From the NCBI RefSeq assembly GCF_036507355.1, contig NZ_AP027877.1: DNA of 64,000 bases, one strand, 5' to 3'. Origin of the DNA: Escherichia coli (GTDB lineage Bacteria > Pseudomonadota > Gammaproteobacteria > Enterobacterales > Enterobacteriaceae). A program made the position numbers and the translations under genes. The notes below the pieces were generated by a model. The model made no database searches, was not told where the DNA came from, and saw only the letters and a program-made list of their open reading frames with translations. Position 1 is the stretch's first letter; every line of letters begins with the position of its first letter. Positions 20,255 to 64,000 of the stretch are shown here, one piece after another.

Positions 20255-20350
20255 TCTTTTCGGTTTTAAAGAAAATGGGCAGTGTGGTGACACCTTGCCC
20301 ATTTTTTTGGCCGGATGCGACAACAATATCGCATCCGCTTACCCCGCAAC

Positions 20351-20955
20351 TCACTGATGCCGTTTACGCAGGTTTTCAATTACCGTCGTTAAATCCAGAT
20401 CCTGATCCTGCAACAGCACCAGCAGGTGATACATCAAATCAGACGCCTCGTTGGTCAGCTCAAAGCGGTCATGTACAGTCGCGGCCAGTGCGGTTTCCAC
20501 GCCTTCTTCGCCCACTTTCTGCGCAATGCGTTTGGTGCCGCTGGCATACAGTTTGGCAGTGTAAGAGGTTTCCGGGTCGGCAGATTTGCGTTCGGCGAGC
20601 AGTTGTTCCAGTTGATACAGGAACAGCCACTGGTGAGCGGTGTCGCCGAAGCAGCTGCTGGTGCCTTTGTGGCAGGTCGGGCCGATGGGATTCGCCAGCA
20701 CCAGTAAAGTGTCGTTGTCGCAGTCCGGCGCAATATTTACTACGTTGAGGAAATTGCCCGACGTTTCGCCTTTGGTCCACAGCCGTTGTTTAGTGCGCGA
20801 GAAGAAGGTGACTTTGCCGCTTTCGATGGTTTTGTCTAAAGCTTCCGGGTTCATATAGCCCAGCATTAGCACTTCGCCGGATACCGCGTGTTGCACAATC
20901 ACCGGCATAAGTCCGTCGATTTTTTCCCAGTCCAGTTCGCGACGTTGTTGTTCTG

Positions 20956-32950: not shown

Positions 32951-34375
32951 TTAGACAATCTCTTCCGCGTACTGCCAAAGCGCTTTTAACAGCGCCACTT
33001 TTTCTTTATCGTCGGCATACTGCTGCGCCAGCATCTGAATCTCTTCTGCATAGCCTTGTAAAAACACGGGTGTGAATACCTGGCGGCGGTGTTCCAGCCA
33101 GCGTTGCTGCTCGGCATAATCCAGCGTCCCCGGGAAGTTGCGCGCCCGATAATTGAACAACAGCTTTTCAATCCGTTTATCGACAAAAGTGATATCCAGT
33201 GCCGGTAAATTACGTGGCTCGGTTTCCAGCACAATTTTCATTGCTGCACGATCGGCGTCACTGAAAAAGCCGTTATAAAGCTGTGCATCCACGTTATCTG
33301 AAGGCGTAAACGGTTCGGCTTCCGCGAATATCGCCACCACTTTTTCGCGCACTTGCGGATTTTCACGCAGAATTTTCAGGTTATCGAGGCAATGCTGACG
33401 ATTAATTCCCAGTCGGTCGGCATCTTCCGGGCGTAGCGTATTCGCCTGGGCCAGCACCGGACATTTATTGATATGCACCAGCTTAACCGGAACGGCGGCG
33501 TTATCGCCAAGATCGGTTTTTGCGGTATATAAACGCTCGCGCAATGTGTCGCTATCCAGTTCCAGTAATGGCGAAATGTCTCCTGCCAAATCCACCATAA
33601 TTACGGCATTGCGATTTTCAGGATGCCACGCCAGCGGTGCCACCCAGCTGGTATTGCCGCGCCATGCCCCAAACATTCCGGAAACGTGAACCAGGGGTTT
33701 CATCTGCGGAACATCAATCAACGCCATCAGTTTGTGTTTATTGCGATGGGTAAAGAGATAATCAAACAGGCGTGGCTGACGCGTTTTTACCAGCTTTGCC
33801 ATCGCAATAGTGGCGTACACATCAGCCATCGCATCGTGGGCGTTGCTATGTTCAATTCCATTCGCTTTGGTTAAATGCTCAAGGCGAAAGCTCGGTAGAC
33901 CGTCATCATTTTCAGGCCAGTTTATTCCTTCCGGGCGCAGGGCATAACAGGCACGCATAACATCAAGTAAATCCCAGCGCGAGTTATCATGCTGCCAGCT
34001 CCAGGCGTAAGGATCGTAGAAATTACGATAAAAAATGTTGCGTGTGACTTCGTCGTCGAAACGCACATTGTTGTAGCCCAGAATACAGGTCTTCGGTACG
34101 GTAAAAAGCGAGTGAATACGGGCGGTAAACGCGGCTTCGTTTTCTCCTTTCGCCCGTGCTTCCTGCGGGGTAATACCGGTAATTAATATGGCTCCAGGCT
34201 GGGGTAAATAGTCATCCGCAGGCTTGCAGTAAAAGACTTCGGGTTCGCCGATGACATTGAATTCGCTATCGGTGCGAATGGCTGCGAACTGTGCAGGGCG
34301 ATCTAACGCGGGGTGCGTGCCAAAGGTTTCGTAATCGTGAAAGAGGAAGGTAGGTTGTTTATCTGTGTCTGTCAT
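32951..34375 (-). CDS. sbcB: Exodeoxyribonuclease I (474 aa)
   Basis: DEDDh exonuclease N-terminus (FHDYETFG); position. Confidence 0.9.
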   Translation of the reverse strand: MTDTDKQPTFLFHDYETFGTHPALDRPAQFAAIRTDSEFNVIGEPEVFYCKPADDYLPQPGAILITGITPQEARAKGENEAAFTARIHSLFTVPKTCILGYNNVRFDDEVTRNIFYRNFYDPYAWSWQHDNSRWDLLDVMRACYALRPEGINWPENDDGLPSFRLEHLTKANGIEHSNAHDAMADVYATIAMAKLVKTRQPRLFDYLFTHRNKHKLMALIDVPQMKPLVHVSGMFGAWRGNTSWVAPLAWHPENRNAVIMVDLAGDISPLLELDSDTLRERLYTAKTDLGDNAAVPVKLVHINKCPVLAQANTLRPEDADRLGINRQHCLDNLKILRENPQVREKVVAIFAEAEPFTPSDNVDAQLYNGFFSDADRAAMKIVLETEPRNLPALDITFVDKRIEKLLFNYRARNFPGTLDYAEQQRWLEHRRQVFTPVFLQGYAEEIQMLAQQYADDKEKVALLKALWQYAEEIV

Positions 34376-34556
34376 TGTCTATCATTGTCCACTGTAGTTA
34401 ATTAACTGTCTGTTATAACTCGAAAAACAACCCTTTTTTCACCTGAGTATGTCTACGAACGTCAAATATAGTTGTTTACTGTGCGCTGTTGTCCATGTGA
34501 TATTGTGTACCAGATGTGTACCAAACTATTATTTCTGAGCGTACCAAATATTATTT

Positions 34557-34853
34557 ATGGCTATAAGCGACACAAAACTGCGTACTATTTATGGTAAACC
34601 ATATTCGGGCCCACAAGAAGTGGCTGATGCCGATGGCCTCAGCGTACGAATTTCACCGAAGGGGGTCATCCAGTTCCAGTACCGCTATCGCTGGCATGGC
34701 AAGCCTAATCGACTTGGGCTTGGTCGATACCCATCCCTGTCTTTGAAGGATGCCAGACAGATCACTGCTGACTTGCGAAAGCTCTATTTCTCAGGAACGG
34801 ATCCACGCACCTATTTTGAAGAGAAGGTGGAGAACTCCATGACGGTACGTTAA
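34557..34853 (+). pseudogene. Integrase N-terminal fragment (arm-binding domain only, 98 aa)
   Basis: Resembles the N-terminal arm-binding domain of P4-family integrases (SDTKLRTIYGKP...GLSVRISPKG...YRYRW); ORF stops before any catalytic domain. Confidence 0.6.
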
Positions 34854-34902
34854 TTTCTTCCGGTGTGAGCGTTGGGGAAGTCCATTCCTTGGGCGCGCGG
34901 AT

Positions 34903-35739
34903 TTGAATACTGTGGAGTTCATCAGTGAAGCACCTAAGTTTCTTATGTGTTTCAGTTCTAATTCACCTATAGACGTATGGGACACCGCTGATTTATTTAT
35001 TAGTGAATGCTCAATGTTTGCTGGAGATTTTGCGGTAAGAACACGCACAACACTTGGTGGGATGGGTGGAACAGACCAATTCGCGGGTTATCCGGTTATA
35101 ATTTCAAATAGCGTTTTTGATGCCATCAACGGTACTGCTTTTGATATGGAGAGTCTAGCTTACGCTACCATCAGCGGTAACATTATTAGTGCAGGGAGGA
35201 TAAACAATAGTCGTGGAATTAATATTAAAGGGGCAAGAAACCTAACATTTACAGGAAACACTATCACTTACTGTGGTGAGTTCGGCATGGTATTGGAAAA
35301 TGCTGAACAATGTTCTTTGTCTAATAATATATTCAACGGAAATAAGACTGGTGGGCTATCGTTGGTAAACTGTAAAGAAATATCTGTTATTGGCGGCTCT
35401 ATGGGTACGTCTTATATCAAAGGTGGGTACTACGTGCAACCACTTGGGATCACAGACCCTGCTGATAACTGTAACGGCATAACCATCAATGGCGTTTCTT
35501 TCGATAGCGATATGACAACCAAGATTTACCTTAATACATCGGAAGAGCGCAAAAACCGTATTATAGCTTGTCTAGGTGTTAATGATACTCAGACGACTTA
35601 TCAAAACCGTGGATCTACTGCGCAGCGCCCTACAGCACCAGTCAGTGGGCAGATGTATTATGATACAACGCTAGGTCTTCCAATATGGTATAACACAGTA
35701 TCATCTGAATGGAAGAGGGCGGATGGTACAAGTGTATGA
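34903..35739 (+). CDS. Phage tail fibre / tailspike fragment (beta-helix repeats), probably truncated
   Basis: Low-GC ORF with repeated NxxGxxxxG beta-helix-like segments; no credible N-terminus; directly precedes gtrC as in serotype-converting phages. Confidence 0.55.
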   Translation: MNTVEFISEAPKFLMCFSSNSPIDVWDTADLFISECSMFAGDFAVRTRTTLGGMGGTDQFAGYPVIISNSVFDAINGTAFDMESLAYATISGNIISAGRINNSRGINIKGARNLTFTGNTITYCGEFGMVLENAEQCSLSNNIFNGNKTGGLSLVNCKEISVIGGSMGTSYIKGGYYVQPLGITDPADNCNGITINGVSFDSDMTTKIYLNTSEERKNRIIACLGVNDTQTTYQNRGSTAQRPTAPVSGQMYYDTTLGLPIWYNTVSSEWKRADGTSV

Positions 35740-35770
35740 TAATGCGGGTGCTTAGCACCCGCTTATTTAA

Positions 35771-37237
35771 TTAATTGCAGTTGAATGTAATGTTTTTATC
35801 GTAAACAAAAATCTTCTTATCTCCGACGTCAATAACCTTTGATGGATTACCAATCTCTTTAATTGTTATATTTCTCATAACCTCATCATCTGTAATTATG
35901 AAATTTCCTCCGCGCTCATACCAATAGTTTTTTGACAACCATTTATTGCATGCAAGTATATTCAAACCTCGGTTTACATCAATCGGAGCAATTGATATGT
36001 CTCCATCTATACTTGCTGATGAAGCAAACCAGAAAGATGCATACCCGTTTGTGAGGTTATTCTGCCTTACAGTGTGTTTTATCTGATTTATAATATCATT
36101 AGAATTGTCTTTTTTTTCATGCATATAAATAGAACAAAAGAGAATAAATGTTGTAACAACCCCTAATGCGATGAATTTCCACCCTCTGGAGTTGTTAGAT
36201 CTGCCAATAACAACAGGTGCTAGTATAAAAAATGGAACGATATATCTTATAGTCCATTCATCTATTGGACGGTTACTTGCAAGGTATGCTGGTATCATTA
36301 TAATACAAGCTATACATATAGCCATATTGACCATGGAGGTTTTGAATATTTCCTTTACTGACATTGCAACTAATATAAGAAGTAAAATCATTACAACAAA
36401 ACAAAAAACAGAAATAAGCGCTGTAATATCAGAAGGTGGTTTGCCAAAGAAGAAAGCTCCACTGTATAGGAGGAATCCTTTTACGAATAAGTATAAATTA
36501 TTCAGGATATCATCAAATGCAACAAATGTTGGATCTGGAACGCCTGGCAAAATGTACCAGTTATGAGCTCTTGCGTACATGGTCATAATTTTTGATGCAA
36601 CATATGCAAATATAGTTGCAACTAGTATGATCAGATTTTTTTGGCTTTTGGTTTTTACTATAAAAATCACTGATGATATTGCTACTGGTGCAATAATGAG
36701 TAGCTTTATGATGTCATCACTGAAACAAGCTAGAACTAACACTAAAATATAAAGAGATAGAGAAATTAACGATCTTGTTTTGGAAAAATTGTCTAACATT
36801 ATGAAGCAAAACAACATGGATACATATGTGCCGACATGTATCACAGGTATTAATACGTTTAATACTGCAAACCCAGAAGGCAGCGCAACGCAAAATGAAA
36901 TGGCCCATAACGATGAAAGCCTTTCTTTTGAAAGATAAAATGTCATCAATGTAACCATTGAATACATAATTGCCGGTATGCAGTATGCTTGGTACTGTCC
37001 GTACCAGAATACCTTTGAAGCAAGTCCGTACCATATTATGTCTGTAAAATAGAATGATACTGTAGAGAGATACCATCCACTAAGCGTCCAATTTCCGTCC
37101 GCAATGTCCTTACCCTCAAGAAGTCCAGAAACAGCATCCGAACTTGGCAAAATCTGTTTTGAAATCGAGGCGTAGAAGAAAGTCAAGAATATAAATCCAA
37201 TGATATATATGGCTGTTTTTTTTATATTTAAAGTCAT
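35771..37237 (-). CDS. Serotype-specific O-antigen glucosyltransferase, GtrC-like (488 aa, polytopic)
   Basis: Large low-GC multi-TM protein immediately downstream of gtrB and gtrA in the same operon. Confidence 0.65.
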   Translation of the reverse strand: MTLNIKKTAIYIIGFIFLTFFYASISKQILPSSDAVSGLLEGKDIADGNWTLSGWYLSTVSFYFTDIIWYGLASKVFWYGQYQAYCIPAIMYSMVTLMTFYLSKERLSSLWAISFCVALPSGFAVLNVLIPVIHVGTYVSMLFCFIMLDNFSKTRSLISLSLYILVLVLACFSDDIIKLLIIAPVAISSVIFIVKTKSQKNLIILVATIFAYVASKIMTMYARAHNWYILPGVPDPTFVAFDDILNNLYLFVKGFLLYSGAFFFGKPPSDITALISVFCFVVMILLLILVAMSVKEIFKTSMVNMAICIACIIMIPAYLASNRPIDEWTIRYIVPFFILAPVVIGRSNNSRGWKFIALGVVTTFILFCSIYMHEKKDNSNDIINQIKHTVRQNNLTNGYASFWFASSASIDGDISIAPIDVNRGLNILACNKWLSKNYWYERGGNFIITDDEVMRNITIKEIGNPSKVIDVGDKKIFVYDKNITFNCN

Positions 37238-37238
37238 T

Positions 37239-38153
37239 TTACTTATCCTTTAGAATGTATCTTGGTCGTTGCTTAACTTCAACATAAATTCTTCCTATAT
37301 ACTCTCCAAGAACTCCTATGCCTATTAACTGAACTCCACCAAGAAACAATATTGATACAATGATAGAAGGGTAACCTGGAACACTATTTCCAAACATCAA
37401 TTTATCAGCAATCATCCATGTTCCATAAAGGAATGATAAGGTTGCCACAAACAGGCCTATATAAGTCCACATGCGCAAAGGGAAAGTAGAAAAGCTAGTG
37501 ATCCCTTCCAGCGCTAAGTTCCAGAGCTTCCATCCATTGAACTTTGTGCTTCCTGCAACGCGTTCTGCTCGCGCATATTCTACGACATCGGTTCGACCAC
37601 CAACCCAGCTCAGCACACCCTTCATAAACAGGTTTCGTTCTGGCATGAGCTTAATGTTTTCTACTACTTCGCGAGACATGAGCCGGAAGTCGCCAACATT
37701 TTCTTCTATCTTAGGGTTGCTGATTTTGTTATGAAGCTTATAGAACCACTCAGCAGATTTACGCTTCAGCCTGCTGTCAGTGGAGCGGTCAGAGCGTTTA
37801 GCCAGAACCATATCTGCACCGGCCTGCCATTTCTCTATCAAGTGAGGAATAACTTCGATAGGGTCTTGCAGATCAACGTCAATCGGGATAATTGCCTCCC
37901 CGGTAGCATGGTCCAGGCCTGCGAACAGGGCGGGTTCTTTGCCGAAGTTACGTGTGAACGACAGCGAAACAACAAGCGGGTCGGCAACAGCAAGCTCGTT
38001 GATAATTGATTCTGTAGCGTCTTTGCTGCCATCGTTTATGAAGACTATCTCGACTTCATGCTGCTGAAGCCCTTCAAATTCGCGCACGGTTTTATAAAAA
38101 ATAGGTATCGTGGCCTCTTCGTTAAAGACCGGAACGACTAAAGAAATTTTCAT
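37239..38153 (-). CDS. gtrB: Bactoprenol glucosyltransferase (GT2) GtrB (304 aa)
   Basis: GT2 N-terminal domain (VVPVFNEE...INDGSKD...DVDLQDP) and two C-terminal TM helices. Confidence 0.85.
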
Positions 38154-38512
38154 TTCGCATCCCTAAAGACAATGAACTTTGAATAGACGAAACCGCACAC
38201 CAGGCTGATGGCGGAGAAGGTGATAAGAGTGACAATTGGAGGAAGTGAACATCTATCAGCAGCCCATCCAACAGTAGCACTGAGTGTTCCCATGAACCCG
38301 ACATATAACATGTAGCGCATCGTTGTAGTTGATGCTTTGAATGTGAATTTTGCATTCGCGAAGAAGCTAAAACTCACAGCCACAACAAAACCTGCGAAGT
38401 TTGCCAGAGCCTGATTGGTATGCGCGGCATAGATACAAACACCAAAAACCACCCAGTGTATAAGGGTGTTCAGCACACCAATAGAGGTGTACTTTGCAAA
38501 TAGCTTTAACAT
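38150..38512 (-). CDS. gtrA: GtrA-family flippase for UndP-glucose (120 aa)
   Basis: Small 4-TM GtrA-like protein; overlaps gtrB start by 4 nt. Confidence 0.85.
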
Positions 38513-38642
38513 TTCTTCTATCAGCTAATAATCAAAGGCATGAAGTCTATCATCCAAGTCTCAATCGATCGATACTTGCTGTAATTGCTGAGACAAAACT
38601 GAGACAAACAAAGCTTTGCACTGGTTTGCAAGTCTTTGTGTC

Positions 38643-38714
38643 ATTCGATAGTTAAGGTGGATCCCTCCACCTTTTCATCAAGCCAATCCGCCCACCACTG
38701 CATCATTTCTCTGC
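38643..38714 (-). pseudogene. Remnant of the 3' end of a P4-family integrase gene
   Basis: Minus-strand translation RREMMQWWADWLDEKVEG... parallels the C-terminus (RIEMMQWWSDYLDAN) of the intact integrase at 55789-57066; the upstream frame is closed by a stop. Confidence 0.5.
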
Positions 38715-39307
38715 GCTTAACGTAGCGGATGCCTCACTATCACACGGTGATGGTTCATTACTGCTTTGTAGAATGGATAGAGAACTGAGGATTAAAAGAT
38801 ATCCCAAAACCCCAAAATCTCATCTTTAGGATTTGCAGAAAGGGAGGCGTGAACAGATACCTGCGCATGAAGACGGAACTAGTCCAGATGTGATATTTGT
38901 GGTGATCACATACATCATCAACGATGCTCGTTATGGTGAGTTTGATGACTACCCGATGAAGTGAAAATTGTGTTGTGTACCAAATTGCGTACCAAACTAA
39001 AATTACAAATCATGAAACCCTTGTTCATGGCGGTTCTCAGGGGTGTTGCGCGTAATCGTGAAACAAAAAGGTAGATTGTTGCTTACCGTCATTCATCATT
39101 AGGTTAAATCCGTTATTTCTGCTGTCTGCCAGAGTATCAAATATCACCGTACTAATCAGCTTTAGCGCCACAATTTGGCAGCGAGTGGCAATAGATCATG
39201 TCAGATAAAAATGAGAGGGTAGTCACATTTTCTTGCACTTTATTCCAGCCAGTTCATAAGTATTTCCGTAAAAAGAACAGCTATTTGAAACTCCTGAGGG
39301 TTTGCTG

Positions 39308-42322: not shown

Positions 42323-42493
42323 TTCCTGAACTTCAGAATCATCTTGCTGCTGCTTCGATTCAGCAAGGATAAAGGGTATGATAGTGAAAAGGGATAAAAG
42401 CATTGTCATCTGCGGCAGCTATGAGTAATGTTGGCCCTAACGAATAGCGGTTGCTTAAACGAATCCGACTCTCACATTATCAGGGGTATAAAA

Positions 42494-42823
42494 ATGGAAA
42501 CTACCAAGCCTTCATTCCAGGACGTACTGGAATTTGTTCGTCTGTTCCGTCGTAAGAACAAACTGCAACGTGAAATTCAGGACGTTGAGAAAAAGATCCG
42601 TGACAACCAGAAGCGCGTCCTGCTGCTGGACAACCTGAGCGATTACATCAAGCCGGGGATGAGCGTTGAAGCAATCCAGGGCATCATCGCCAGCATGAAA
42701 GGTGACTATGAAGATCGCGTTGACGATTACATTATCAAAAATGCCGAGCTCTCCAAAGAACGCCGCGATATCTCCAAAAAGCTGAAAGCTATGGGCGAAA
42801 TGAAAAACGGCGAAGCGAAGTAA
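42494..42823 (+). CDS. yeeX: DUF496 family protein (109 aa)
   Basis: Starts [14 protein letters not shown]; the upstream extension in the ORF track lacks a ribosome-binding site. Confidence 0.8.
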
Positions 42824-42840
42824 TTCCTGTTTTATTCAAT

Positions 42841-42870
42841 GAGGGTTGCCCGGCAACCCTCATTGCTCAT
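42841..42870 (+). terminator. Rho-independent terminator after yeeX
   Basis: Perfect hairpin gagggttgcc-cggcaaccctc, T-rich downstream. Confidence 0.45.
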
Positions 42871-42923
42871 TGATTCTTTTCTGTGTATCACAGTCATCAT
42901 TCCCATCTGATAACCTATCGAAA

Positions 42924-43097
42924 TTAGCGACAGACATCTTCTGTATGCAGCAAGGCAAAAAATTCTGTAACTCCATTGTTATTAACCGCATTGGTTACTA
43001 ACACGTTGTGCGCTCCGGCTTCCCGTAACCAACATTTCACCAAAGATATTTGTTCCATGCTGGCTAAATCTGCTTTGGTGACTACTCCAATGATCGG
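42924..43097 (-). pseudogene. C-terminal fragment of a GTPase gene (yeeP-like scar)
   Basis: Minus strand encodes ...IIGVVTKADLASMEQISLVKCWLREAGAHNV... (TKxD G4 motif) preceded by an in-frame stop; no intact N-terminus. Confidence 0.45.
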
Positions 43098-43281
43098 ACG
43101 TTAACACGAGGAAGTCTGGCTATTCCACAATGCCATCTTCTTTCGTAATGGATTGAGAATGCTGGATTTTTAATTATATTACGCGCAGTATTAATCGCGT
43201 AAATGTTTTGTGGTCAGCAACGGTGGGGGATCCATTGTTCTGTTCAATGAATACCATCATACAATTGAATCAGGAGTCGGT

Positions 43282-43827
43282 ATGATGATTTTGGTGACAG
43301 GTGGAGCACGGAGCGGGAAGAGTCGCCACGCAGAGGCGCTTATTGGGGACTCTTCACAGGTTCTGTATATCGCCACCTCGCAAATCCTTGATGATGAGAT
43401 GGCTGCACGGATAGAACATCATCGGCAAGGCCGCCCGGCGCACTGGCACACAGTGGAGCGCTGGCAACATCTTGATGAATTAATTCATGCAGACATTAAC
43501 CCGCATGAGGCTGTGTTGCTGGAATGCGTTACAACAATGGTGACTAATCTGTTGTTTGATTATGGCGGCGATAAAGACCCTGATGAATGGGATTATCAGG
43601 CGATGGAACAGGCGATTAATGCTGAGATTCAGTCGTTGATTGCTGCCTGCCAACGTTGCCCCGCAAAGGTTGTATTAGTGACTAACGAAGTGGGAATGGG
43701 GATTGTGCCGGAGAGTCGTCTGGCACGTCATTTTCGTGATATTGCCGGGCGGGTAAATCAGCAGCTGGCCGCTGCGGCTAATGAAGTATGGCTGGTGGTT
43801 TCGGGTATTGGAGTAAAAATCAAATGA
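43282..43827 (+). CDS. cobU: Adenosylcobinamide kinase / adenosylcobinamide-phosphate guanylyltransferase (181 aa)
   Basis: P-loop GGARSGKS near the N-terminus; start at ATG 43282. Confidence 0.9.
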
Positions 43828-48130: not shown

Positions 48131-49081
48131 GTGAATTTCCAACAACTAAAGATAATCCGCGAAGCTGCACGTCAGGATTACAACCTGACAGAGGTTGCGA
48201 ATATGCTTTTTACCTCACAGTCAGGCGTCAGCCGTCATATTCGGGAACTGGAGGATGAGCTTGGCATCGAAATATTTGTTCGACGAGGTAAGCGACTGCT
48301 GGGCATGACTGAACCGGGCAAAGCATTACTGGTCATTGCAGAACGTATTCTGAATGAAGCCAGTAATGTTCGTCGGCTTGCAGACCTGTTTACCAACGAT
48401 ACGTCTGGCGTTCTCACTATTGCAACGACGCATACTCAGGCACGTTATAGCTTGCCAGAGGTCATTAAAGCTTTTCGCGAACTTTTCCCGGAGGTTCGGC
48501 TCGAGCTAATCCAGGGGACGCCACAGGAAATTGCGACGTTGTTGCAAAATGGTGAAGCTGATATTGGTATCGCCAGCGAGCGTTTGAGTAATGACCCGCA
48601 GCTCGTCGCCTTCCCGTGGTTTCGTTGGCACCATAGTTTGCTTGTTCCACTCGATCATCCCTTGACGCAAATTACACCATTGACGCTGGAATCAATAGCG
48701 AAGTGGCCATTAATCACTTACCGACAGGGTATTACGGGGCGCTCACGCATTGATGACGCATTTGCCCGCAAAGGTTTGCTGGCAGATATTGTATTAAGTG
48801 CGCAGGATTCTGATGTCATTAAAACCTATGTTGCTCTTGGGCTTGGGATCGGAATAGTTGCCGAACAATCCAGCGGCGAACAAGAGGAAGAGAATTTAAT
48901 CCGCCTGGATACGCGGCATCTTTTCGATGCTAATACTGTCTGGTTGGGACTGAAGCGAGGACAACTTCAGCGTAACTATGTCTGGCGCTTTCTGGAACTT
49001 TGTAATGCAGGACTGTCAGTTGAGGATATCAAGCAGCAGGTGATGGAAAACAGTGAAGAGGAAATTGATTATCAGATATAG
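48131..49081 (+). CDS. cbl: CysB-like LysR-family regulator (316 aa)
   Basis: Starts MNFQQLKIIREAARQDYNLTEVA; CysB-like. Confidence 0.9.
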   Translation: MNFQQLKIIREAARQDYNLTEVANMLFTSQSGVSRHIRELEDELGIEIFVRRGKRLLGMTEPGKALLVIAERILNEASNVRRLADLFTNDTSGVLTIATTHTQARYSLPEVIKAFRELFPEVRLELIQGTPQEIATLLQNGEADIGIASERLSNDPQLVAFPWFRWHHSLLVPLDHPLTQITPLTLESIAKWPLITYRQGITGRSRIDDAFARKGLLADIVLSAQDSDVIKTYVALGLGIGIVAEQSSGEQEEENLIRLDTRHLFDANTVWLGLKRGQLQRNYVWRFLELCNAGLSVEDIKQQVMENSEEEIDYQI

Positions 49082-49118
49082 CAAAAAGCCCGCTATAAAA
49101 GCGGGCTTTTCAGAAATC

Positions 49119-49135
49119 TGGCTCCTCTGACTGGA
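49119..49135 (-). other. 17-bp fragment of the tRNA-Asn 3' end (island boundary repeat)
   Basis: tggctcctctgactgga matches the 3' end of tRNA-Asn; with the 5-bp flank aaatc it is a 22-bp direct repeat of 57211-57232. Confidence 0.8.
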
Positions 49136-49808
49136 TGCGGATTTTGTTGTAGTTTATTGAATTTAAATGATTTTTATGAGTAGAATAAAAATAAGGCCCT
49201 TAGAAAGGCCCCTCAGATATTTTTGCTTAAAAAGATGATGTAAGTCACATTTTCAGGGGCTGTTACCTGGAGGTCTTAAAACCAACGAGAGGTCGTCATT
49301 CCTGGCGTATAGCGGGAATGCACCAGACATACAGAAACAGGGACTTGCACCAGCTTTAATATAGCTGGCTGCACCAGATCCTGGCGCTGCAAAAGTCCAT
49401 GATTGCGCCAGATTCTGAGGGATTACATCGATCTGAGCCAGAGTTGTCCCTTTGGGTTATAGCCTTTTCAGGTCAGGTGCTGTTACCCTTAGCTGGCCTT
49501 TACCCTTTTCCTTTTGACCGTCGGCTATGTGCCAAAAGCGGAATTCCAGTGGTTCTAGAAAAGCTATCATTCCATGGTCAAATTTTGTCGATCACTGCAC
49601 TTATGGAACCGCCATAACATAGGTAGATAGTTGAAGATAGCTAGAACGATGATAGATGATTTTCTTTACAGGGCTGACTTCTAGTCTATCTCATGTAATA
49701 CTCTATATTATATCTAATGTACAATATTAATAGCATTGTGATGTATCGACAACATGGATAGTCCACTGCTATTAAAACTATAATGACATTTAATTGAGAA
49801 ATATAAAA

Positions 49809-50826
49809 ATGACTCTATTAGAAAAATTGTTATCAAAAGGATACTTTCCTAAAGAAGCTCTCCCTCCTTTCTCTACGGAAAAATATGCACGCGCAATTGT
49901 GAATGGATACGATAATCTTCCCCAATTATTTAGAACCGGAAAATTCATAAGTAAGTGCGCTATTCATAATATTTCCAGAAAAGGTACATTACGGAGAAAA
50001 CTTGGAATACCTAATCCCATCAACTTCTTTAGATTAAGTGAGGCAATAACTGAAAATTGGTACGATATATATGAATGCGCAAGTGAATCAACAATATCGT
50101 TGACAACTCCAGACCCTGCCAGCAATGGCGGAAGAGCATTCAACCCAAAGCATTCATTAAATGAGCTTCCAGATATTCATGCAAAACTTAGAAGTAAACA
50201 TAAATATATACTTAAAACCGATATAAGCAGATTTTACCACTCAATATACACTCATAGTATTGCATGGACTTACCATACAAAAGATATTTCAAAAAGAAAC
50301 AGAAGCAATAGTTTATTTGGCAATGTATTAGACAAGCATTCGCAAGATTCGCAAGATGGACAAACAATAGGGCTCCCCATTGGTCCAGATACATCACTTA
50401 TCATAGCAGAGTCTCTGTTATCAAATATTGATCTTAAGCTTAGCGAAAAAGGCATTAGCAATGGCTTACGTTATATAGATGATTATTTCCTAGGGTTCAA
50501 TACAATTGGGGAAGCAGAATCTGCATTAACAATAATGCAGGAACTGTTAAACGAATATGAGTTAGCATTGAACCCCTTGAAAACAGAAATCATACAATTA
50601 CCAATTGAATTCGAGCCATTAGCAATTTCAGAACTAAGGGCATTTTCATTTAGAGATACAGCTGGCGGTCAGAAATCAGATTTAATGCATTATTTCAACA
50701 TAGCTTTCAAGGCAGCAAAAGATTTACCAACGGAACCAATATTAAAATATGCAGTATCAAGGACATTTGAAGTAAATGTTACTGCTGAAAACTATCCTGT
50801 TTTTGAAAATTTTATATTACAATGTG
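49809..50826 (+). pseudogene. Reverse transcriptase, N-terminal 339 codons, interrupted by IS1
   Basis: RT motifs DISRFYHSIY, GLPIGPDTSL, YIDDYF (YxDD) and LNPLKTEI; the frame runs straight into the IS1 end at 50827. Confidence 0.8.
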
Positions 50827-50881
50827 GGTGATGCTGCCAACTTACTGATTTAGTGTATGATGGTGTTTTTGAGGTGCTCCA

Positions 50882-51157
50882 GTGGCTTCTGTTTCTATCA
50901 GCTGTCCCTCCTGTTCAGCTACTGACGGGGTGGTGCGTAACGGCAAAAGCACCGCCGGACATCAGCGCTATCTCTGCTCTCACTGTCGTAAAACATGGCA
51001 ACTGCAGTTCACTTACACCGCTTCTCAACCCGGTACGCACCAGAAAATCATTGATATGGCCATGAATGGCGTTGGATGCCGGGCAACAGCCCGCATTATG
51101 GGCGTTGGCCTCAACACGATTTTACGTCACTTAAAAAACTCAGGCCGCAGTCGGTAA
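50882..51157 (+). CDS. insA: IS1 InsA (91 aa)
   Basis: Zinc-finger N-terminus CPSC...CSHC; canonical IS1 ORF. Confidence 0.95.
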
Positions 51158-51579
51158 CCTCGCGCATACAGCCGGGCAGTGACGTCATCGTCTGCGCGGA
51201 AATGGACGAACAGTGGGGCTATGTCGGGGCTAAATCGCGCCAGCGCTGGCTGTTTTACGCGTATGACAGGCTCCGGAAGACGGTTGTTGCGCACGTATTC
51301 GGTGAACGCACGATGGCGACGCTGGGGCGTCTTATGAGCCTGCTGTCACCCTTTGACGTGGTGATATGGATGACGGATGGCTGGCCGCTGTATGAATCCC
51401 GCCTGAAGGGAAAGCTGCACGTAATCAGCAAGCGATATACGCAGCGAATTGAGCGGCATAACCTGAATCTGAGGCAGCACCTGGCACGGCTGGGACGGAA
51501 GTCGCTGTCGTTCTCAAAATCGGTGGAGCTGCATGACAAAGTCATCGGGCATTATCTGAACATAAAACACTATCAATAA
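51076..51579 (+). CDS. insB: IS1 InsB (transposase catalytic part, made as InsAB by frameshift)
   Basis: Canonical IS1 second ORF overlapping insA. Confidence 0.9.
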
Positions 51580-51602
51580 GTTGGAGTCATTACCTACAAT
51601 GT

Positions 51603-51881
51603 GTTACAGCTGACAGTAGCACATTAAAATACACCGTCAATCAGCTTATAAAATACAAAAGAATAGGTTATGTTCAGAACGTTGAGAACATTTCGCATAT
51701 TTTGAGACAATTAGCAATAACTGAAAGCTCACTTGGCCATGGACACGAAGTTGCTTATTGCCTATGGCTTTATTTGATACTACGCATCCCCATACCAGAA
51801 GTCGTCGTTAAAAATGTGGTACCAATGAGAGATCCATTTGTTGCAATTTTGTTATGCGATTGCAGGCAAAAAACCTCATGA
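51603..51881 (+). pseudogene. Reverse transcriptase C-terminal 92 codons displaced by IS1
   Basis: With one copy of the 9-bp duplication removed, the RT frame continues without stops from 51603 to TGA at 51879-51881. Confidence 0.7.
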
Positions 51882-52171
51882 CTTTTATACCTGATTTCTC
51901 AATTTATGAGCAAATGATGGTGATGGAAGAGCTATCGGGCGATATGTAGATTTTTGTCTATGAGATGCTTGCAAAAGGATGGTTTCAACCATTATCAAAC
52001 CAAAATCCAATTAGTCAAAATGAGTGTTATAGGTTCCTATTGAATTCAGGTGTTTTTTTCTATAATGAACATCTCTCATTAACTATTATGGCTGAAAGTC
52101 CAATTGATACAGATGGCTCGGCAGAGGGATTCAGTGGTTGAAATTAAAAATTATCTGTAAATAACTAACCC

Positions 52172-52210
52172 CCCTCCCTTTAATTTAATATTAAGGGAGG
52201 GTTGTGTTTC
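52172..52210 (+). terminator. Hairpin terminator downstream of the RT gene
   Basis: ccctccctt-(12 nt)-aagggaggg perfect 9-bp stem followed by ttgtgtttc; also marks a GC-content transition. Confidence 0.4.
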
Positions 52211-52449
52211 GATATACATATATGGGCTTTGGTGAATAAATCAGATTTGGGATAAACATCCCTGGAGACAGTTGCAGCTGTCAGGTAATACGCACGCTTT
52301 TTGCTCAGAACCCCATCAATGCGCCGCCAGCACTTTTGCAGCCAGCCCAGTCGGGTTACGCCGTCTGGACTCCCAACTTTTGATGATATCGACGCTGGTT
52401 CCTTAGGGTTATTGCGTAACGATTTATTCTGCGCCAGTCATGAAAGCCG

Positions 52450-53409
52450 TTATTCCTTCTTCCATTCGTGCGCGTAAACCTGCTTCACCCAGCGACCGCG
52501 CCCGTCGCCATGCCCCAGGTCCATCGCCACCATTGCCAGCGCCTCTTTTTCGCTGAATCCCTGCGCCAGATACCGGCGAATATCGTCCTGCGCCAGATAC
52601 CGGCGAATATCGTCCTGCGCCCAGGCGTAACGCAGCGAATGTGGGGAGTATTTGCCCGTCAGCCCCATACGCAAAGTCTGGTTGCGCCAGTATTTCATTG
52701 CCTGTTTAAGGCTTGCCGCATCAATCAGCCTGCCGTTGCGCAGTCCTGCCACCACAATGGCATTATCGAGCGCCCGTTTAACTGCGCCAGCATTCTGAAT
52801 AAGGGTATCGCGGGGCCGCCCGCCTTTGGTGCCAAACACGATGGTTAGCCGGGTGGCTCCACGTTCAAGCGACTGCCGCCACGTCAGCAATGAACGTGAA
52901 CAGCGTACCGCCTCCTGTGAACGTAACCCCATCAGCCGCGCCAGCTCCAGCGCTGCCGCCAGTCCTGCGTCTTTCAGCCGGGCAGTCTCTGCCATCTGTT
53001 GATAATATTCCGGCGTGATGGCTTTCCGTGTACCATTGCGGGATACGCCAGCCAGCCCCAGCGATTTATTCGATATCCGCTCACTCTGCGCCAGTTTTTC
53101 GCGCCCGGCCTGCGTCAGTATTTTACGGATAGCCGCCGTTTCGTTATGCAGCGTCTGTTTCTGAATACCCTGCGCCAGTCGCATCTGAATATACGCCTCA
53201 ATATGCTTCGCCTTTAAATGATGGACATAGCGTATCTGAACGTTCAGTTCCGTCAGTCGTTCGCAGAACCGTTCTGCCATGGCGATACGGTCATGGACAG
53301 TCTTGTGCGCCCCGCCAGCCTGCCGCGCCAGGTTTTTCATCTCTCTTTCCAGCATACCCATTTTGCTTTTCCTCTTATCTCGCTCCTGATTTTCACAAAA
53401 CCACAACAC
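52450..53409 (-). CDS. Tyrosine recombinase / phage-integrase-family protein with internal 9-aa tandem duplication (319 aa)
   Basis: C-terminal HSLRY...LGHGDGRGRWVKQVYAH resembles recombinase box II with catalytic Tyr; DDIRRYLAQ is duplicated through a 27-bp tandem repeat at 52561-52614. Confidence 0.6.
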   Translation of the reverse strand: MLWFCENQERDKRKSKMGMLEREMKNLARQAGGAHKTVHDRIAMAERFCERLTELNVQIRYVHHLKAKHIEAYIQMRLAQGIQKQTLHNETAAIRKILTQAGREKLAQSERISNKSLGLAGVSRNGTRKAITPEYYQQMAETARLKDAGLAAALELARLMGLRSQEAVRCSRSLLTWRQSLERGATRLTIVFGTKGGRPRDTLIQNAGAVKRALDNAIVVAGLRNGRLIDAASLKQAMKYWRNQTLRMGLTGKYSPHSLRYAWAQDDIRRYLAQDDIRRYLAQGFSEKEALAMVAMDLGHGDGRGRWVKQVYAHEWKKE

Positions 53410-54253
53410 ACAACGGATACAGCTTTCCCCGGCGCATAGGCCGATAGCCCCTGATTTTTGTCGGGGCTGCGAGCAGTACCTGAGCGCCGGGGCGACGGCT
53501 GTTGAGGTTTTGCGGGGTATCGGTTGTGCTCTCAGAGCAGCCGCCAGCGTGAGCTGGTCATCCCCCGGACCGTCCTGGTGGTCCCCCTCCGGTACTGGCT
53601 CATGTTCTCCTTTGGTGAATGAATGGTTGAAATAAATGCTGAAAAGCGACGTCAGAAGCTCGCCTGTGGCTGGAACAGTTGATATGACTGGTGCAGATGA
53701 AAATTTCTGCGGGCGTCAGTCTCTCACTCTGCGTGAGCGACTGACGCCCTGGTCTGGCGCAGGCGCTGAAAATTACACTCTGGTGCAGGATGGCGGCCAC
53801 GCGGCAGCAAATGCCTTCGGCAAATGCAGGCCGCAGCCCGTCATGTAAAGGGCGCTGGTAATCAGCAGGGTATAAGTGGGCCGGAGAAATTCCGGCAAAG
53901 AGAAACCGTGCAGCCGGTGAAGGCTGTTGCCGTTAAGCGATGACGATGAAGCCGTCCAGTGTATGTACTCTTAGCCTCAAACGCTTTCGCGTTCCGGTAT
54001 TGCGGAGGTCGTACCGGTAGCAGGGGGCTGGTCGTCCTGATAAATCAGGGGCTTCTTGCAGACCATGAAGCCAAAGGGGCTGTCAACCGACAGCTTATTG
54101 CAGGAGAGAGATTACACCGTAATTTCTGGCGCAGAAAGGGGAAACTCATTTTTCTGGAAATTGAGTTTCCCCCTGAATTTATGGAAAGTTTGTGAATGGA
54201 ACACTGCCGCGCTTCGCTTGTCGTCTCCCGGTGTGCGATTTGCTGTATCAGGA

Positions 54254-54502
54254 TCATCGCTTTCGCATGAACCTTTCCAGGCGATTACCTTTGCCGTCGA
54301 AGTATCTGGAAGGCCAGATGATCTCTGGAGCTATCTCCAGCGCATCTGCAATAAGTTTTTCTCCGCGCGGCCACGGGCGGGAAAGTGCATTTGCCAGTGT
54401 GGAAGAACTCAACCCTGCTTTACGCGATACCTCAGCCAGTGAGGTCCCTTTCTTTCTTAATCCGGCAATGATATCTGCCGGATGCCAGTCATCTTTATTC
54501 AT
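54254..54502 (-). CDS. Ner/Nlp-family DNA-binding protein (82 aa)
   Basis: DWHPADIIAGLRKKGTSLAEVSRKAGLSSSTLANALSRPWPRGE closely matches the Ner/Nlp family signature. Confidence 0.8.
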   Translation of the reverse strand: MNKDDWHPADIIAGLRKKGTSLAEVSRKAGLSSSTLANALSRPWPRGEKLIADALEIAPEIIWPSRYFDGKGNRLERFMRKR

Positions 54503-54614
54503 TGTTTTCCCCTGTTTCCAAATCTGGTTTTTCTGACTTTAGGAACTCTAAAGGCAATGAATCTTAAGGAATGCTAAAGATGGTGTCAATGTAACTATTA
54601 ACCAAACAGGTTAT

Positions 54615-54914
54615 ATGATCCCTGAACGACTCAAGGCAGCGAGGTTGCGGGCTAATCTCACCCAGGAACAACTGGGCGTTCGTGCAGGCATCGCCGAAGA
54701 TACGGCCTGCTCCCGGCTTTCTCAGTACGAAAGTGGAACACACAAGCCCACATTCAAAATGGTTTGTGCCTTTGCTCGTGTTTTGCATGTTCCTGAATGT
54801 TACTTCTATGCACAGGAAGACACTTTCGCCGAAGCGATTTTAAGGCTGTATGACGGTGAAACTGTGCAGTGGAATATAAAAACAGAGATCGTTCATCATA
54901 CTGAACGGGTATAA
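54615..54914 (+). CDS. XRE-family HTH regulator, copy 1 (99 aa)
   Basis: HTH region LTQEQLGVRAGIAEDTA...YESGTHKP; paralogue of the next gene. Confidence 0.7.
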   Translation: MIPERLKAARLRANLTQEQLGVRAGIAEDTACSRLSQYESGTHKPTFKMVCAFARVLHVPECYFYAQEDTFAEAILRLYDGETVQWNIKTEIVHHTERV

Positions 54915-55013
54915 ACCTCTTGCCTCATCCATCCTCTTTATGAACTCTAAAGAAAAATGCTCTTGAGGAATGCTAAAGATTACCGTCATAAATTCAAACT
55001 GATGGTAATTTCA

Positions 55014-55283
55014 ATGATCCCCAAACGCTTAAAAGAAGCCAGATTGCGGGCTAAACTCACTCAGGAAAAATTGGGGGTACTGGCGGGTATTGAAGAAGCC
55101 ACGGCTTATTCGCGTCTGTCACATTACGAGAGTGGTACGCATAAACCAACTTTTGATCTCGTTTGTGAGTTTGCCCGAGTACTCAATGTACCAGAATGCT
55201 ATTTCTATACGGTGGATGATGATTTCGCGCAGGCGGTGTTGGATCTTCATGCCAGGTGGACAAAGAGAACTACGGAAAGATAG
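55014..55283 (+). CDS. XRE-family HTH regulator, copy 2 (89 aa)
   Basis: MIPKRLKEARLRAKLTQEKLGV... about 60% identical to copy 1; start aligned to copy 1. Confidence 0.65.
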   Translation: MIPKRLKEARLRAKLTQEKLGVLAGIEEATAYSRLSHYESGTHKPTFDLVCEFARVLNVPECYFYTVDDDFAQAVLDLHARWTKRTTER

Positions 55284-55304
55284 ATCGCAGAAAATAAAAA
55301 ACCC

Positions 55305-55390
55305 CGCTGGTGAGGCAGGGTTCTTTATTTTTCGTTCTCAGACTGCTTATAGCGACCTGAGCAACGTTGCGCGACAATACAATCCTAGCA
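55305..55390 (-). ncRNA. Candidate antisense sRNA antitoxin (Orz/IstR-like), predicted from promoter, repeat and terminator
   Basis: Minus-strand promoter-like elements (-35 ttgcaa, palindromic, at 55419-55424; -10 taaact from 55396-55401); transcript would begin inside repeat 55369-55392 and end at a hairpin plus T-run near 55300-55335. Confidence 0.3.
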
Positions 55391-55418
55391 GAATAAGTTT
55401 AACCCGCTTTGTTTCCCG

Positions 55419-55448
55419 TTGCAAACAAACGCTCCCGGTCTTTATAAT
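55419..55448 (+). promoter_or_regulatory. Sigma70-like promoter for the toxin mRNA (-35 TTGCAA, 18-bp spacer, -10 TATAAT)
   Basis: ttgcaa at 55419-55424 and tataat at 55443-55448 on the plus strand; gives a 5' UTR of roughly 180 nt. Confidence 0.45.
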
Positions 55449-55634
55449 GCCAGACGCTGGGTTTATCACGTTTCAGGCCAGACCGATTTCAAGCCCTGAC
55501 TGCCGGACGGGTGGTGCCGCAGGCAGTGCCCCGGTCTGGAGCGTGATAATACAATCCTAGCAGATGTGATCCTGCGCCGACAGGCAATGTAAGGGTAAGG
55601 TGCAGGCGTTGCGCTCCTTTCATAAGGAGAGCGG

Positions 55635-55724
55635 ATGGACATGTTGACGCGAAAGCTGATCGTGCTCATCGCCGTACTGGAGCTTTTGCTGGCTCTGCTG
55701 CGGTTGATTGATCTGTTGAAATAA
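55635..55724 (+). CDS. Candidate type I toxin, 29-aa hydrophobic peptide MDMLTRKLIVLIAVLELLLALLRLIDLLK
   Basis: ATG at 55635 five nt after AGGAG; single predicted TM helix; similar in length and composition to ZorO/DinQ/TisB-type toxins; followed by a hairpin terminator. Confidence 0.55.
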   Translation: MDMLTRKLIVLIAVLELLLALLRLIDLLK

Positions 55725-55744
55725 TTCTCAGATTGAAACGCACC

Positions 55745-55770
55745 AAAGGGGAAACACCCGTTTCCCCTTT
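55745..55770. terminator. Bidirectional hairpin terminator between the toxin ORF and the integrase gene
   Basis: aaaggggaaac-accc-gtttccccttt with A/T runs on both sides. Confidence 0.6.
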
Positions 55771-55788
55771 AATAAATACGCTGCTTTG

Positions 55789-57066
55789 TTACGACGCCTG
55801 TTTCAGGCGGCGGGCATACTGGTAAGCTGAAACATACCCGTCACTGTTTGCATCAAGATAATCTGACCACCATTGCATCATCTCGATCCGCTCTTCCAGA
55901 TATTCAGCCTTGTGAATATACGCAGCGCGGACGCTGTTTCTTTCCTGGTGACTCATTTGTTTTTCAATCGCTTCTTTGCTCCACAGCCCCGATTCACTCA
56001 ACGCACTACATGCCATCGCCCGGAAGCCATGCCCGCAGACGTCTTTTTTGGTGTCATAGCCCATCACCCGCAGCGCTTTATTCACGGTGTTGTCGCTCAT
56101 GCACTTATCCTGGTCGTACTCGCCGGGAAAGATAAAGGCCAGATGACCGGAGAGGGCTTCGATCTGTTTCAGGATCGCAATTGCCTGATCCGACAGCGGC
56201 ACGATATGTTGAATTTTCATTTTCGACCCCCGGTAAGAGAAGCGCACATTTTCGATCTGCTCGCGTTCTTCCGCGATCACCCACAGCTTTTGCTGCCAGT
56301 CGATTTCACTCCAGCGAGCAAAGCGTAGCTCGCTGGAGCGCACAAAAAATATCAGTGACAACTTAAGGGCGTATTTCGTCAGCAGCCTGCCGCAGTAGTT
56401 ATCCGTACGGGTTAAAAGCTCTGGCAGCCTGTCCAGCGACAGGGCCGGGTAATGATTAGTCTCTGGCGCAGCAAATTCACCATCCAGATACAGCGCGGGG
56501 TTCGCTTTGAGCAACTGCTTTTTCATCGCGTAGTGCATGATGTCGGTGACATAGTTTTTCAGCCGGGCGGTGATCTCCAGAAAGCCTTTGCTCTCCACCT
56601 TACGCAGCGTGACCAGCAAATCCTCTGTTTCGATCTCCCCGATAAGGCGATCCCCGATATCCGGGAAAACATACATTTCCAGTCTGCGCATAACCGTTTT
56701 CGCGTAATGTTCAGACCAGCGTTTATGCTCGCCATGCCAGTTAGTGGCGACCTGGCTGAACGTCTGTCCGTTTTTCTTCTTCTGTTTCTCCGTCTGCTTC
56801 ACCGCAGCAGGATCGACGCCTGCATGAATGTTATTGCGTGCCGCTTCCCGTAAACGGCGAGCCTGCAACAGCGAGATCCCCGGGTAGGGGCCAAAGGCCA
56901 GCTTTTTCTCTTTCCCGTCGATACGGTACTTCATGTACCAGAGTTTTGAGCCATTAGGTTTGATCAACAGGTACAGTCCGGAACTGTCTGTCATTTTGAA
57001 AGGTTTGTCGGAGGGTTTGATCTTGCGAATCGTGGTATCTGTTAATGCCATAGCGGGGGGCTCCAT
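55789..57066 (-). CDS. P4-family tyrosine integrase (425 aa)
   Basis: N-terminal arm-binding domain (LTDTTIRKIKPSDKPFKMTDSSGLYLLIKPNGSKLWYMKYR) plus C-terminal catalytic domain; adjacent to the tRNA-Asn 3' end. Confidence 0.9.
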   Translation of the reverse strand: MEPPAMALTDTTIRKIKPSDKPFKMTDSSGLYLLIKPNGSKLWYMKYRIDGKEKKLAFGPYPGISLLQARRLREAARNNIHAGVDPAAVKQTEKQKKKNGQTFSQVATNWHGEHKRWSEHYAKTVMRRLEMYVFPDIGDRLIGEIETEDLLVTLRKVESKGFLEITARLKNYVTDIMHYAMKKQLLKANPALYLDGEFAAPETNHYPALSLDRLPELLTRTDNYCGRLLTKYALKLSLIFFVRSSELRFARWSEIDWQQKLWVIAEEREQIENVRFSYRGSKMKIQHIVPLSDQAIAILKQIEALSGHLAFIFPGEYDQDKCMSDNTVNKALRVMGYDTKKDVCGHGFRAMACSALSESGLWSKEAIEKQMSHQERNSVRAAYIHKAEYLEERIEMMQWWSDYLDANSDGYVSAYQYARRLKQAS

Positions 57067-57215
57067 TTGCTCACCGAACCGTGAGGCCCCCGATTAAGCC
57101 CACAAAAACTATGGATGTCAAGAAACCCGGTAGCCTCTTGTGAGACAACCGGGTAAAGATAAGTTCTTGTTTTTTAACTATCTCGAGACTCATAGAGATG
57201 TCTCAAAACTAAAAT

Positions 57216-57291
57216 CTGGCTCCTCTGACTGGACTCGAACCAGTGACATACGGATTAACAGTCCGCCGTTCTACCGACTGAACTACAGAGG
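57216..57291 (-). tRNA. asnU: tRNA-Asn (GUU), island integration target
   Basis: 76-nt minus-strand tRNA identical to the other copies. Confidence 0.95.
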
Positions 57292-57452
57292 AATCGCTGT
57301 TGAGGCACATCTTAACGGCGAAAAATCTTTTGTCAAACCCGATTTTTAAATTCCCCAACTGTTTGCCGTTTCTATCAACAGTTTGTTGCATTTGCAGACA
57401 ATTTGTTGGCGAAAATCTTTGCAGCTTTGCTGATTCTCCCTCATTATTTGAA

Positions 57453-63496: not shown

Positions 63497-63587
63497 AATG
63501 ATCCTGTTTGTACTGTCTTTTTATAATTAGTATGGAAAAGGTAACTCACATTGCCGTCGATCTATAAACTGAATCGCCACGGATAAT

Positions 63588-64000
63588 CTAGACACTTCCG
63601 AGCCGTTGATAATACTGGTTTTCATATTCTGTCGGTGACATCTGATCGCTGGAACCATGCCGACGCTTACTGTTATAAAACATTTCGATGTAATCAAAAA
63701 TATCGCTGCGGGCTTCTTCCCGCGTTCCGTAGATCTTTTTCTTTATCCGTTCGCGTTTCAACAACTGGAAAAAGCTTTCTGCAACCGCATTATCATGGCA
63801 GTTACCGCGACGGCTCATGCTGCCCTCCAGGCCGTGTGATTTCAGGAACGACTGCCACTCATGGCTTGTGTACTGACTGCCCTGATCCGAATGAACCAGC
63901 ACCTGTTTTTGGGGATTACGGCGCCATACAGCCATCAGCAGTGCGTTCAGGACAATGTCCTTTGTCATCCGGGATTGCATGGACCAGCCGATAATTTTGC
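63588..64000 (-). mobile_element. IS3-family insertion sequence, transposase OrfB C-terminal part (runs off window end)
   Basis: Integrase-core sequence (HSDQGSQYTS...RRGNCHDNAVAESFF...); frame is open to position 64000. Confidence 0.75.

Follow-up and report, generated by a model that had tools for sequence, protein, structure and literature searches.

The tmaR-cobU interval in pdu-positive strains and in K-12

In the pdu-positive Escherichia coli strains A0 34/86 and LF4-1, which came up when the longer R32_14_1F allele (see below) was used as a query, a complete propanediol-utilisation (pdu) operon is found at exactly the position of the locus described here. The order is the following: tmaR, facing the oppositely oriented genes pduV, pduU, pduT...pduB and pduA; pduF and pocR, which run in the direction of tmaR; a cobalamin riboswitch; a 145-aa ORF; and then cobU, cobS and cobT. 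The intact PduV of A0 34/86 is a 147-aa protein with the motifs GPSQCGKT (G1), DTPG (G3) and TKAD (G4); it scores 185 bits on the PF10662 and TIGR02528 models, and a PDB sequence search with it gave no match. The 145-aa ORF, which RefSeq calls 'hypothetical' or 'cobalamin biosynthesis protein', matches a cobalt-precorrin 5A hydrolase model of NCBIfam (NF004463, positions 1-126 of 351, E=1.3e-20) and gave no match in a Pfam search. It is an N-terminal fragment of CbiG, located directly between the riboswitch and cobU (19510-20340 region of the A0 34/86 locus, L005), and even pdu-positive E. coli therefore keep one sliver of the cbi operon (cbiA-P).

In K-12, a short gene lies directly after tmaR, named yoeF in one RefSeq record (WP_001016348.1, a 60-aa 'EutP/PduV family microcompartment system protein'). 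From there the order is an IS-transposase fragment, yeeW, cbtA, cbeA, yeeT, yeeS, yeeR, agn43 and the yeeP pseudogene, and, beyond the latter, IS2, IS5, a 48-codon cbiG' remnant and cobU. The short gene is thus at the yeeX-proximal edge of the CP4-44 island and yeeP is near its cobU-proximal end. K-12 gene lists place yoeF with the CP4-44 prophage region (PMC11551758). A gene table for STEC strains gives the order yeeA, hypothetical, yoeF, cobU, cobS, cobT (PMC5359238), which is the island-free order encountered below. Our literature search found yoeF in gene lists only, and no papers on pdu with CP4-44 or on the pdu operon with cobUST.

The fragment between tmaR and cobU

The DNA analysed here is a stretch of 64,000 nucleotides of an E. 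coli genome, hereafter the window; its features are listed in Table 1. Positions 42400-43700 are 99.9% identical to strain G4/9, where RefSeq labels the orthologous fragment as a partial 'EutP/PduV family microcompartment system protein'. The spacer between tmaR and cobU is 458 bp long. The hairpin at its left end, also seen as an inverted self-match with blastn, is probably the tmaR terminator; it was missed by a simple terminator scan in spite of its strong fold, because no T-run adjoins it.

Table 1. Positions of the features of the window, in window coordinates
Feature	Position	Strand	Basis or remark
Integrase Arm-DNA-binding fragment	34557-34853		In the 34359-39051 segment
Beta-helix tailspike-like ORF	34903-35739		In the 34359-39051 segment
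488-aa membrane protein	35771-37237		In the 34359-39051 segment
GT2/GtrB-like gene	37239-38153		In the 34359-39051 segment
GtrA	38150-38512		In the 34359-39051 segment
tmaR (yeeX), intact DUF496 gene	42494-42823	+	ORF list; 99.9% identity to the annotated tmaR of G4/9; left of the scar
13-bp perfect hairpin between convergent tmaR and pduV'	42837-42865	.	RNA fold, -21.7 kcal/mol, z=-4.8
pduV 3' stub, homologue of K-12 yoeF	42924-43093	-	PduV residues ~92-147 and native stop
Deletion junction	43093/43094	.	Alignments; pduV on one side, 3' tail of the cbiG-fragment ORF on the other
cbiG-fragment tail (last 17 codons and stop of the 145-aa ORF)	43094-43148	+	Dead tail in the window
Candidate promoter TTGAGA-16-TATATT	43153-43180	+	Consensus scan; ~100 bp upstream of cobU
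cobU, intact, first gene of cobUST	43282-43827	+	ORF list; G4/9 annotation; right of the scar
Island between cbl and tRNA-Asn	~49000-57300		~8 kb
Reverse-transcriptase ORF (RVT_1)	49794-50831		Broken by IS1
IS1 insertion	50826-51595		InsA and IS1 DDE transposase domains
EFASI RNA	53470-53603	-	Rfam; inside the ~8-kb island
tRNA-Asn	57217-57292		
IS3-family element	63570-64000		Contains the window end

The comparison with G4/9, the closest genome, revealed a few other particularities of the window. A 4.7-kb segment (34359-39051) between sbcB and dacD is missing from G4/9; its gene content resembles that of an O-antigen glucosylation cassette of the gtrABC type lying in a prophage remnant. An IS1 is inserted relative to G4/9; its flanks overlap by 9 bp (L006 7096-7104), as would be expected of a target duplication, and the insertion breaks a reverse-transcriptase gene which is intact in G4/9 (431 aa). 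In the G4/9 annotation, the island between cbl and tRNA-Asn contains HTH regulators and two integrase genes besides the RT gene; it might be a retron or a defence island occupying the asn tRNA site. The IS3-family element within which the window ends is inverted relative to the G4/9 copy.

The minus strand of the tmaR-cobU spacer contains a short open frame: after an in-frame TAA (43103-43101), it reads RPIIGVVTKADLASMEQISLVKCWLREAGAHNVLVTNAVNNNGVTEFFALLHTEDVCR (58 aa, 43100-42927) up to a stop at 42926-42924, and includes the TKAD (G4) motif. A preliminary description of this DNA had seen there a C-terminal GTPase fragment preceded by an in-frame stop, which the 58-aa frame and its motif bear out; the limits it gave, 42924-43097, were correct to within 3 nt, the 5' end being 3 nt short of the true one (43100). 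The longest ATG-initiated ORF of the stub encodes 44 aa (42924-43058). Against the Pfam family PF10662 (PduV-EutP) the stub gave an E-value of 1.2e-10 (41.8 bits, for a cutoff of 21), the matched part being limited to profile positions 90-142 of 143. TIGR02528 was matched over about the same part (positions ~90-142 of 143, E=1.6e-9), with a score under its full-length cutoff, as expected since the stub is a fragment. When intact E. coli PduV was compared with the window by tblastn, the stub was found with 87% identity (E=1e-32), which, like the PF10662 match, is well outside what chance would give; its DNA is ~97% identical to the 3' end of the intact pduV of A0 34/86. The nucleotide-binding core of the EutP/PduV family is incomplete: G4 is kept, and the G1 P-loop and G3 are missing. 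The N-terminal two-thirds of the GTPase, with G1 and G3, were found by tblastn neither in other frames nor elsewhere in the window; likewise, an intact gene that a corrected frame might have restored, an outcome that the preliminary description had named as telling against its reading, was not recovered from the window by tblastn. Apart from the stub, a BLAST search revealed no pdu genes in the window.

Judged by these alignments, the fragment is the remaining 3' end of pduV, the final gene of the pdu microcompartment operon. The position in a pdu or eut operon, downstream of pduU, that goes with the EutP/PduV family is observed in pdu-positive E. coli and not in the window; since pduV follows pduU at the orthologous pdu-positive locus, it is descent that is established, not current operon membership. 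The Pfam and TIGRFAM families take in EutP and PduV alike, which would also accommodate an origin from eutP, the paralogue of the ethanolamine operon. This is extremely improbable, given that the nearly identical DNA is that of the gene next after pduU in pdu-positive E. coli, which occupies the same place in the chromosome, and that this intact gene scores merely 45 bits on the EutP equivalog NF012011 (cutoff 258). The eutP origin was rejected on the basis of the synteny with the pduV of pdu-positive strains.

The fragment had previously been related to yeeP, the GTPase pseudogene of CP4-44, as a stub left once the prophage was lost. It does possess a GTPase G4 motif and does lie at the CP4-44 site of K-12. 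BLASTP, however, aligned it with K-12 YeeP over nine residues, at the G4 motif only (E=0.23), and when an intact YeeP homologue of 290 aa was run against the whole window with tblastn, nothing significant came up (best E 2.2). An absence of similarity to YeeP had been named beforehand as the result that would tell against this identity, and it is what was obtained. Moreover, YeeP matches other GTPase models (Era, EF-Tu) and not PF10662, and K-12 holds both yeeP and the pduV stub, at opposite ends of the island and not side by side. The chances that the stub derives from yeeP are negligible, and this candidate was rejected on the negative BLASTP and tblastn results. What stands from the earlier reading is that the locus is the CP4-44 position of K-12, since the K-12 island lies in the same tmaR-cobU gap, and that island genes, among them flu/agn43, yeeR-W and cbtA/cbeA, are lacking: neither the 12.7-kb island of K-12 nor the 24-kb island of strain GTEN_23 has any blastn match in the window. 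With the fragment being the 3' end of pduV, and yeeP lying at the far end of the island, the scar records the loss of pdu, pocR, the riboswitch and cbiG' rather than that of a prophage.

The K-12 gene directly after tmaR is the same stub, with about 97% identical DNA. This, together with the synteny, indicates that yoeF (L002 6525-6707) is chromosomal pdu debris and not prophage DNA. By synteny, the true boundary of CP4-44 in K-12 is the IS-transposase fragment just past yoeF. The feature amounts to an unremarkable pseudogene remnant (pduV' = yoeF), annotated before, in a deletion allele that is common. Its significance is mostly one of annotation hygiene, with nothing surprising to specialists; it is nonetheless worth recording that yoeF, usually listed with CP4-44, is in reality a chromosomal pduV remnant.

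Being devoid of P-loop and switch regions, the stub should not be able to bind or hydrolyse GTP as PduV does; the established architecture of P-loop GTPases implies that GTPase activity is lost without G1 and G3. Could the stub be kept for another function, as a micro-protein of 44 aa (here) or 60 aa (K-12), or for the tmaR 3' sequence and termination? Its frame is without stop or frameshift in 11 of the 11 diverse alleles examined, the last ~56-99 codons are kept in all three pdu-negative allele classes (see below) with two independent breakpoints only 14 nt apart, and some RefSeq records call a 44-aa or a 60-aa protein, so that a small peptide may be expressed. An unbroken frame is, however, expected by chance because the divergence is merely 3-5% over 165 nt; the start codon varies between alleles, since the Met used in K-12 is deleted in the window; and pN/pS is based on 6-9 substitutions per comparison, which is too few to reveal constraint, comparisons between intact genes giving a similar picture. 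The P-loop is missing, and the tmaR hairpin falls outside the stub. We therefore regard a retained function as quite improbable; the same low likelihood applies to the view that selection maintains the 3' end of pduV, as a micro-protein or because the convergent tmaR transcript needs it to form its 3' end or to be stable, and that it is not neutral debris.

The junction and its presumed consequences for cobUST

Alignment of the window with the A0 34/86 locus by blastn places 42400-43100 on positions 1925-2624 of that locus (L005) and 43094-43700 on positions 20286-20892. The window is thus short of ~17.66 kb relative to the pdu-positive locus, and of 410 bp relative to the R32_14_1F-type allele; none of the 17.66-kb sequence was found elsewhere in the window by BLAST. 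The two arms of the join (marked by a slash) are ...CCAATGA/CCGGGCG on the left and ...CATTTTG/TCGGACG on the right, and they display an imperfect microhomology of 5 nt out of 7. Distant sequences are therefore directly joined, with short homology at the join only, as in a deletion scar. Because of the imperfect near-repeat, the frame of the stub stays open for two extra codons (RP) before the TAA. On the other side, residues 129-145 of the 145-aa ORF were recovered with 100% identity at 43095-43145 (tblastn), and beyond the tail of cbiG' the native cobU leader extends for 133 bp.

These features suggest that a single event of illegitimate recombination fused pduV, at codon ~91, with the final 17 codons of the cbiG-fragment ORF; the sequence removed in the process would amount to about 17.66 kb, i.e. 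the remaining pdu genes, pduF, pocR and the riboswitch. We are highly confident that the fragment represents the non-functional last ~56 codons of pduV, left by an illegitimate-recombination deletion of pdu, pduF, pocR and the riboswitch.

After the deletion, cobUST retains 188 bp of native upstream sequence in the window, and an Rfam search of the window revealed no cobalamin riboswitch. The TTGAGA-16-TATATT sequence, unchanged in the window, G4/9, R32_14_1F and K-12, may act as the cobUST promoter once the riboswitch and the upstream promoter are lost; the consensus scan which detected it found one promoter-like site for 1.2 expected by chance, a weak result. The presumed consequences of the deletion are an inability to use 1,2-propanediol and the loss of the PocR and riboswitch control of cobUST. 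With pocR and the B12 riboswitch gone, the regulation of cobUST must differ from that of pdu-positive strains. In a separate observation, the cobU gene of the island-bearing strain GTEN_23 is annotated as frameshifted (L013 1512-2058), a hint that decay of cobUST may be continuing in some lineages.

Distribution, history and relationship to known alleles

To estimate how common each arrangement is, junction-specific queries were compared with 5,426 complete E. coli genomes, of which 5,349 (98.6%) were accounted for. The hierarchy was: K-12-type stub/island junction (4,174 genomes, 76.9%), pdu-positive, i.e. with an intact pduC (642 genomes, 11.8%), window-type 43093/43094 junction (331 genomes, 6.1%) and R32_14_1F-type pduV'-cbiG' fusion (202 genomes, 3.7%). 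The difference between 530 and 202 agrees with the number of window-type genomes. The stub is present in all three pdu-negative classes, which together make up about 87% of the 5,426 genomes; pdu-negative E. coli therefore derive from the pdu-positive arrangement by deletion or replacement. This bears on interpretations such as that of a study of ST372, where the patchy distribution of pdu was read mainly as repeated acquisition (PMC9997745).

Between window-type genomes, 10-14 positions out of 994 nt differ on the left of the junction and 15-31 out of 1,467 nt on the right, and the window allele is a shared, old polymorphism. The flanking haplotypes of the 11 alleles compared are mosaic: the differences among window-type alleles are as large as those with other classes, and the right flank of one window-type strain almost matches that of an R32-type strain.

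Three routes could have led to the window allele: a one-step 17.66-kb deletion from a pdu-positive ancestor, a nested 410-bp deletion within an R32-type scar, or the loss of an island. According to the third, the ancestor carried a CP4-44-type island with a K-12-type junction, which was later deleted together with 14 nt of pduV and ~107 nt or more of cbiG'. The K-12-type left junction is indeed merely 14 nt past the breakpoint of the window. The K-12-type allele keeps more of both pduV and cbiG', which makes it a possible precursor; for the same reason it cannot derive from the window type, and the window junction cannot be a precise island excision site. The junction of the window is not the K-12-type island/chromosome junction. 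As to the flanks, the SNPs of the right arm closest to the junction are the same in the window and in the island-bearing GTEN_23, but the left flank of the window is nearest to that of an R32-type strain (7 differences in 994 nt), and both flanks are recombinant mosaics. Furthermore, not a single island-derived nucleotide is left in the window, and the junction is equally well explained by the one-step deletion from a pdu-positive locus or by the 410-bp deletion in an R32-type allele. Loss of an island is a conceivable but rather unlikely history, and each of the three routes may have led to the junction.

Comparison with the known arrangements places the window allele as follows. With respect to the PduV of the pdu-positive strains A0 34/86 and LF4-1, the stub corresponds to the C-terminal ~56 residues, TKAD included; residues 1 to ~90, with GPSQCGKT and DTPG, are lacking, as are ~20 other pdu genes. 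YeeP of CP4-44 shares with the stub the P-loop GTPase superfamily, a [TN][KQ]xD G4 motif and, in K-12, the same gap; it belongs to a different family, is located at the other end of the island and has no significant similarity to the stub. The R32_14_1F/FORC_041-type empty site is, like the window, island-free and consists of a clean pduV'-cbiG' fusion; its junction is a different one, with a TTTT microhomology, where 99 aa of PduV are retained along with 119 aa of the cbiG fragment. Finally, yoeF of K-12 corresponds to the stub of the window both in being the 3' stub of pduV and in its place, convergent with tmaR. It is 14 nt longer and keeps an internal Met of PduV (MNHPVIGVV...), and the cbiG' remnant of K-12 is ~107 nt longer than that of the window; whereas yoeF adjoins the IS-transposase fragment and CP4-44, the stub of the window adjoins the cbiG' tail and cobU.
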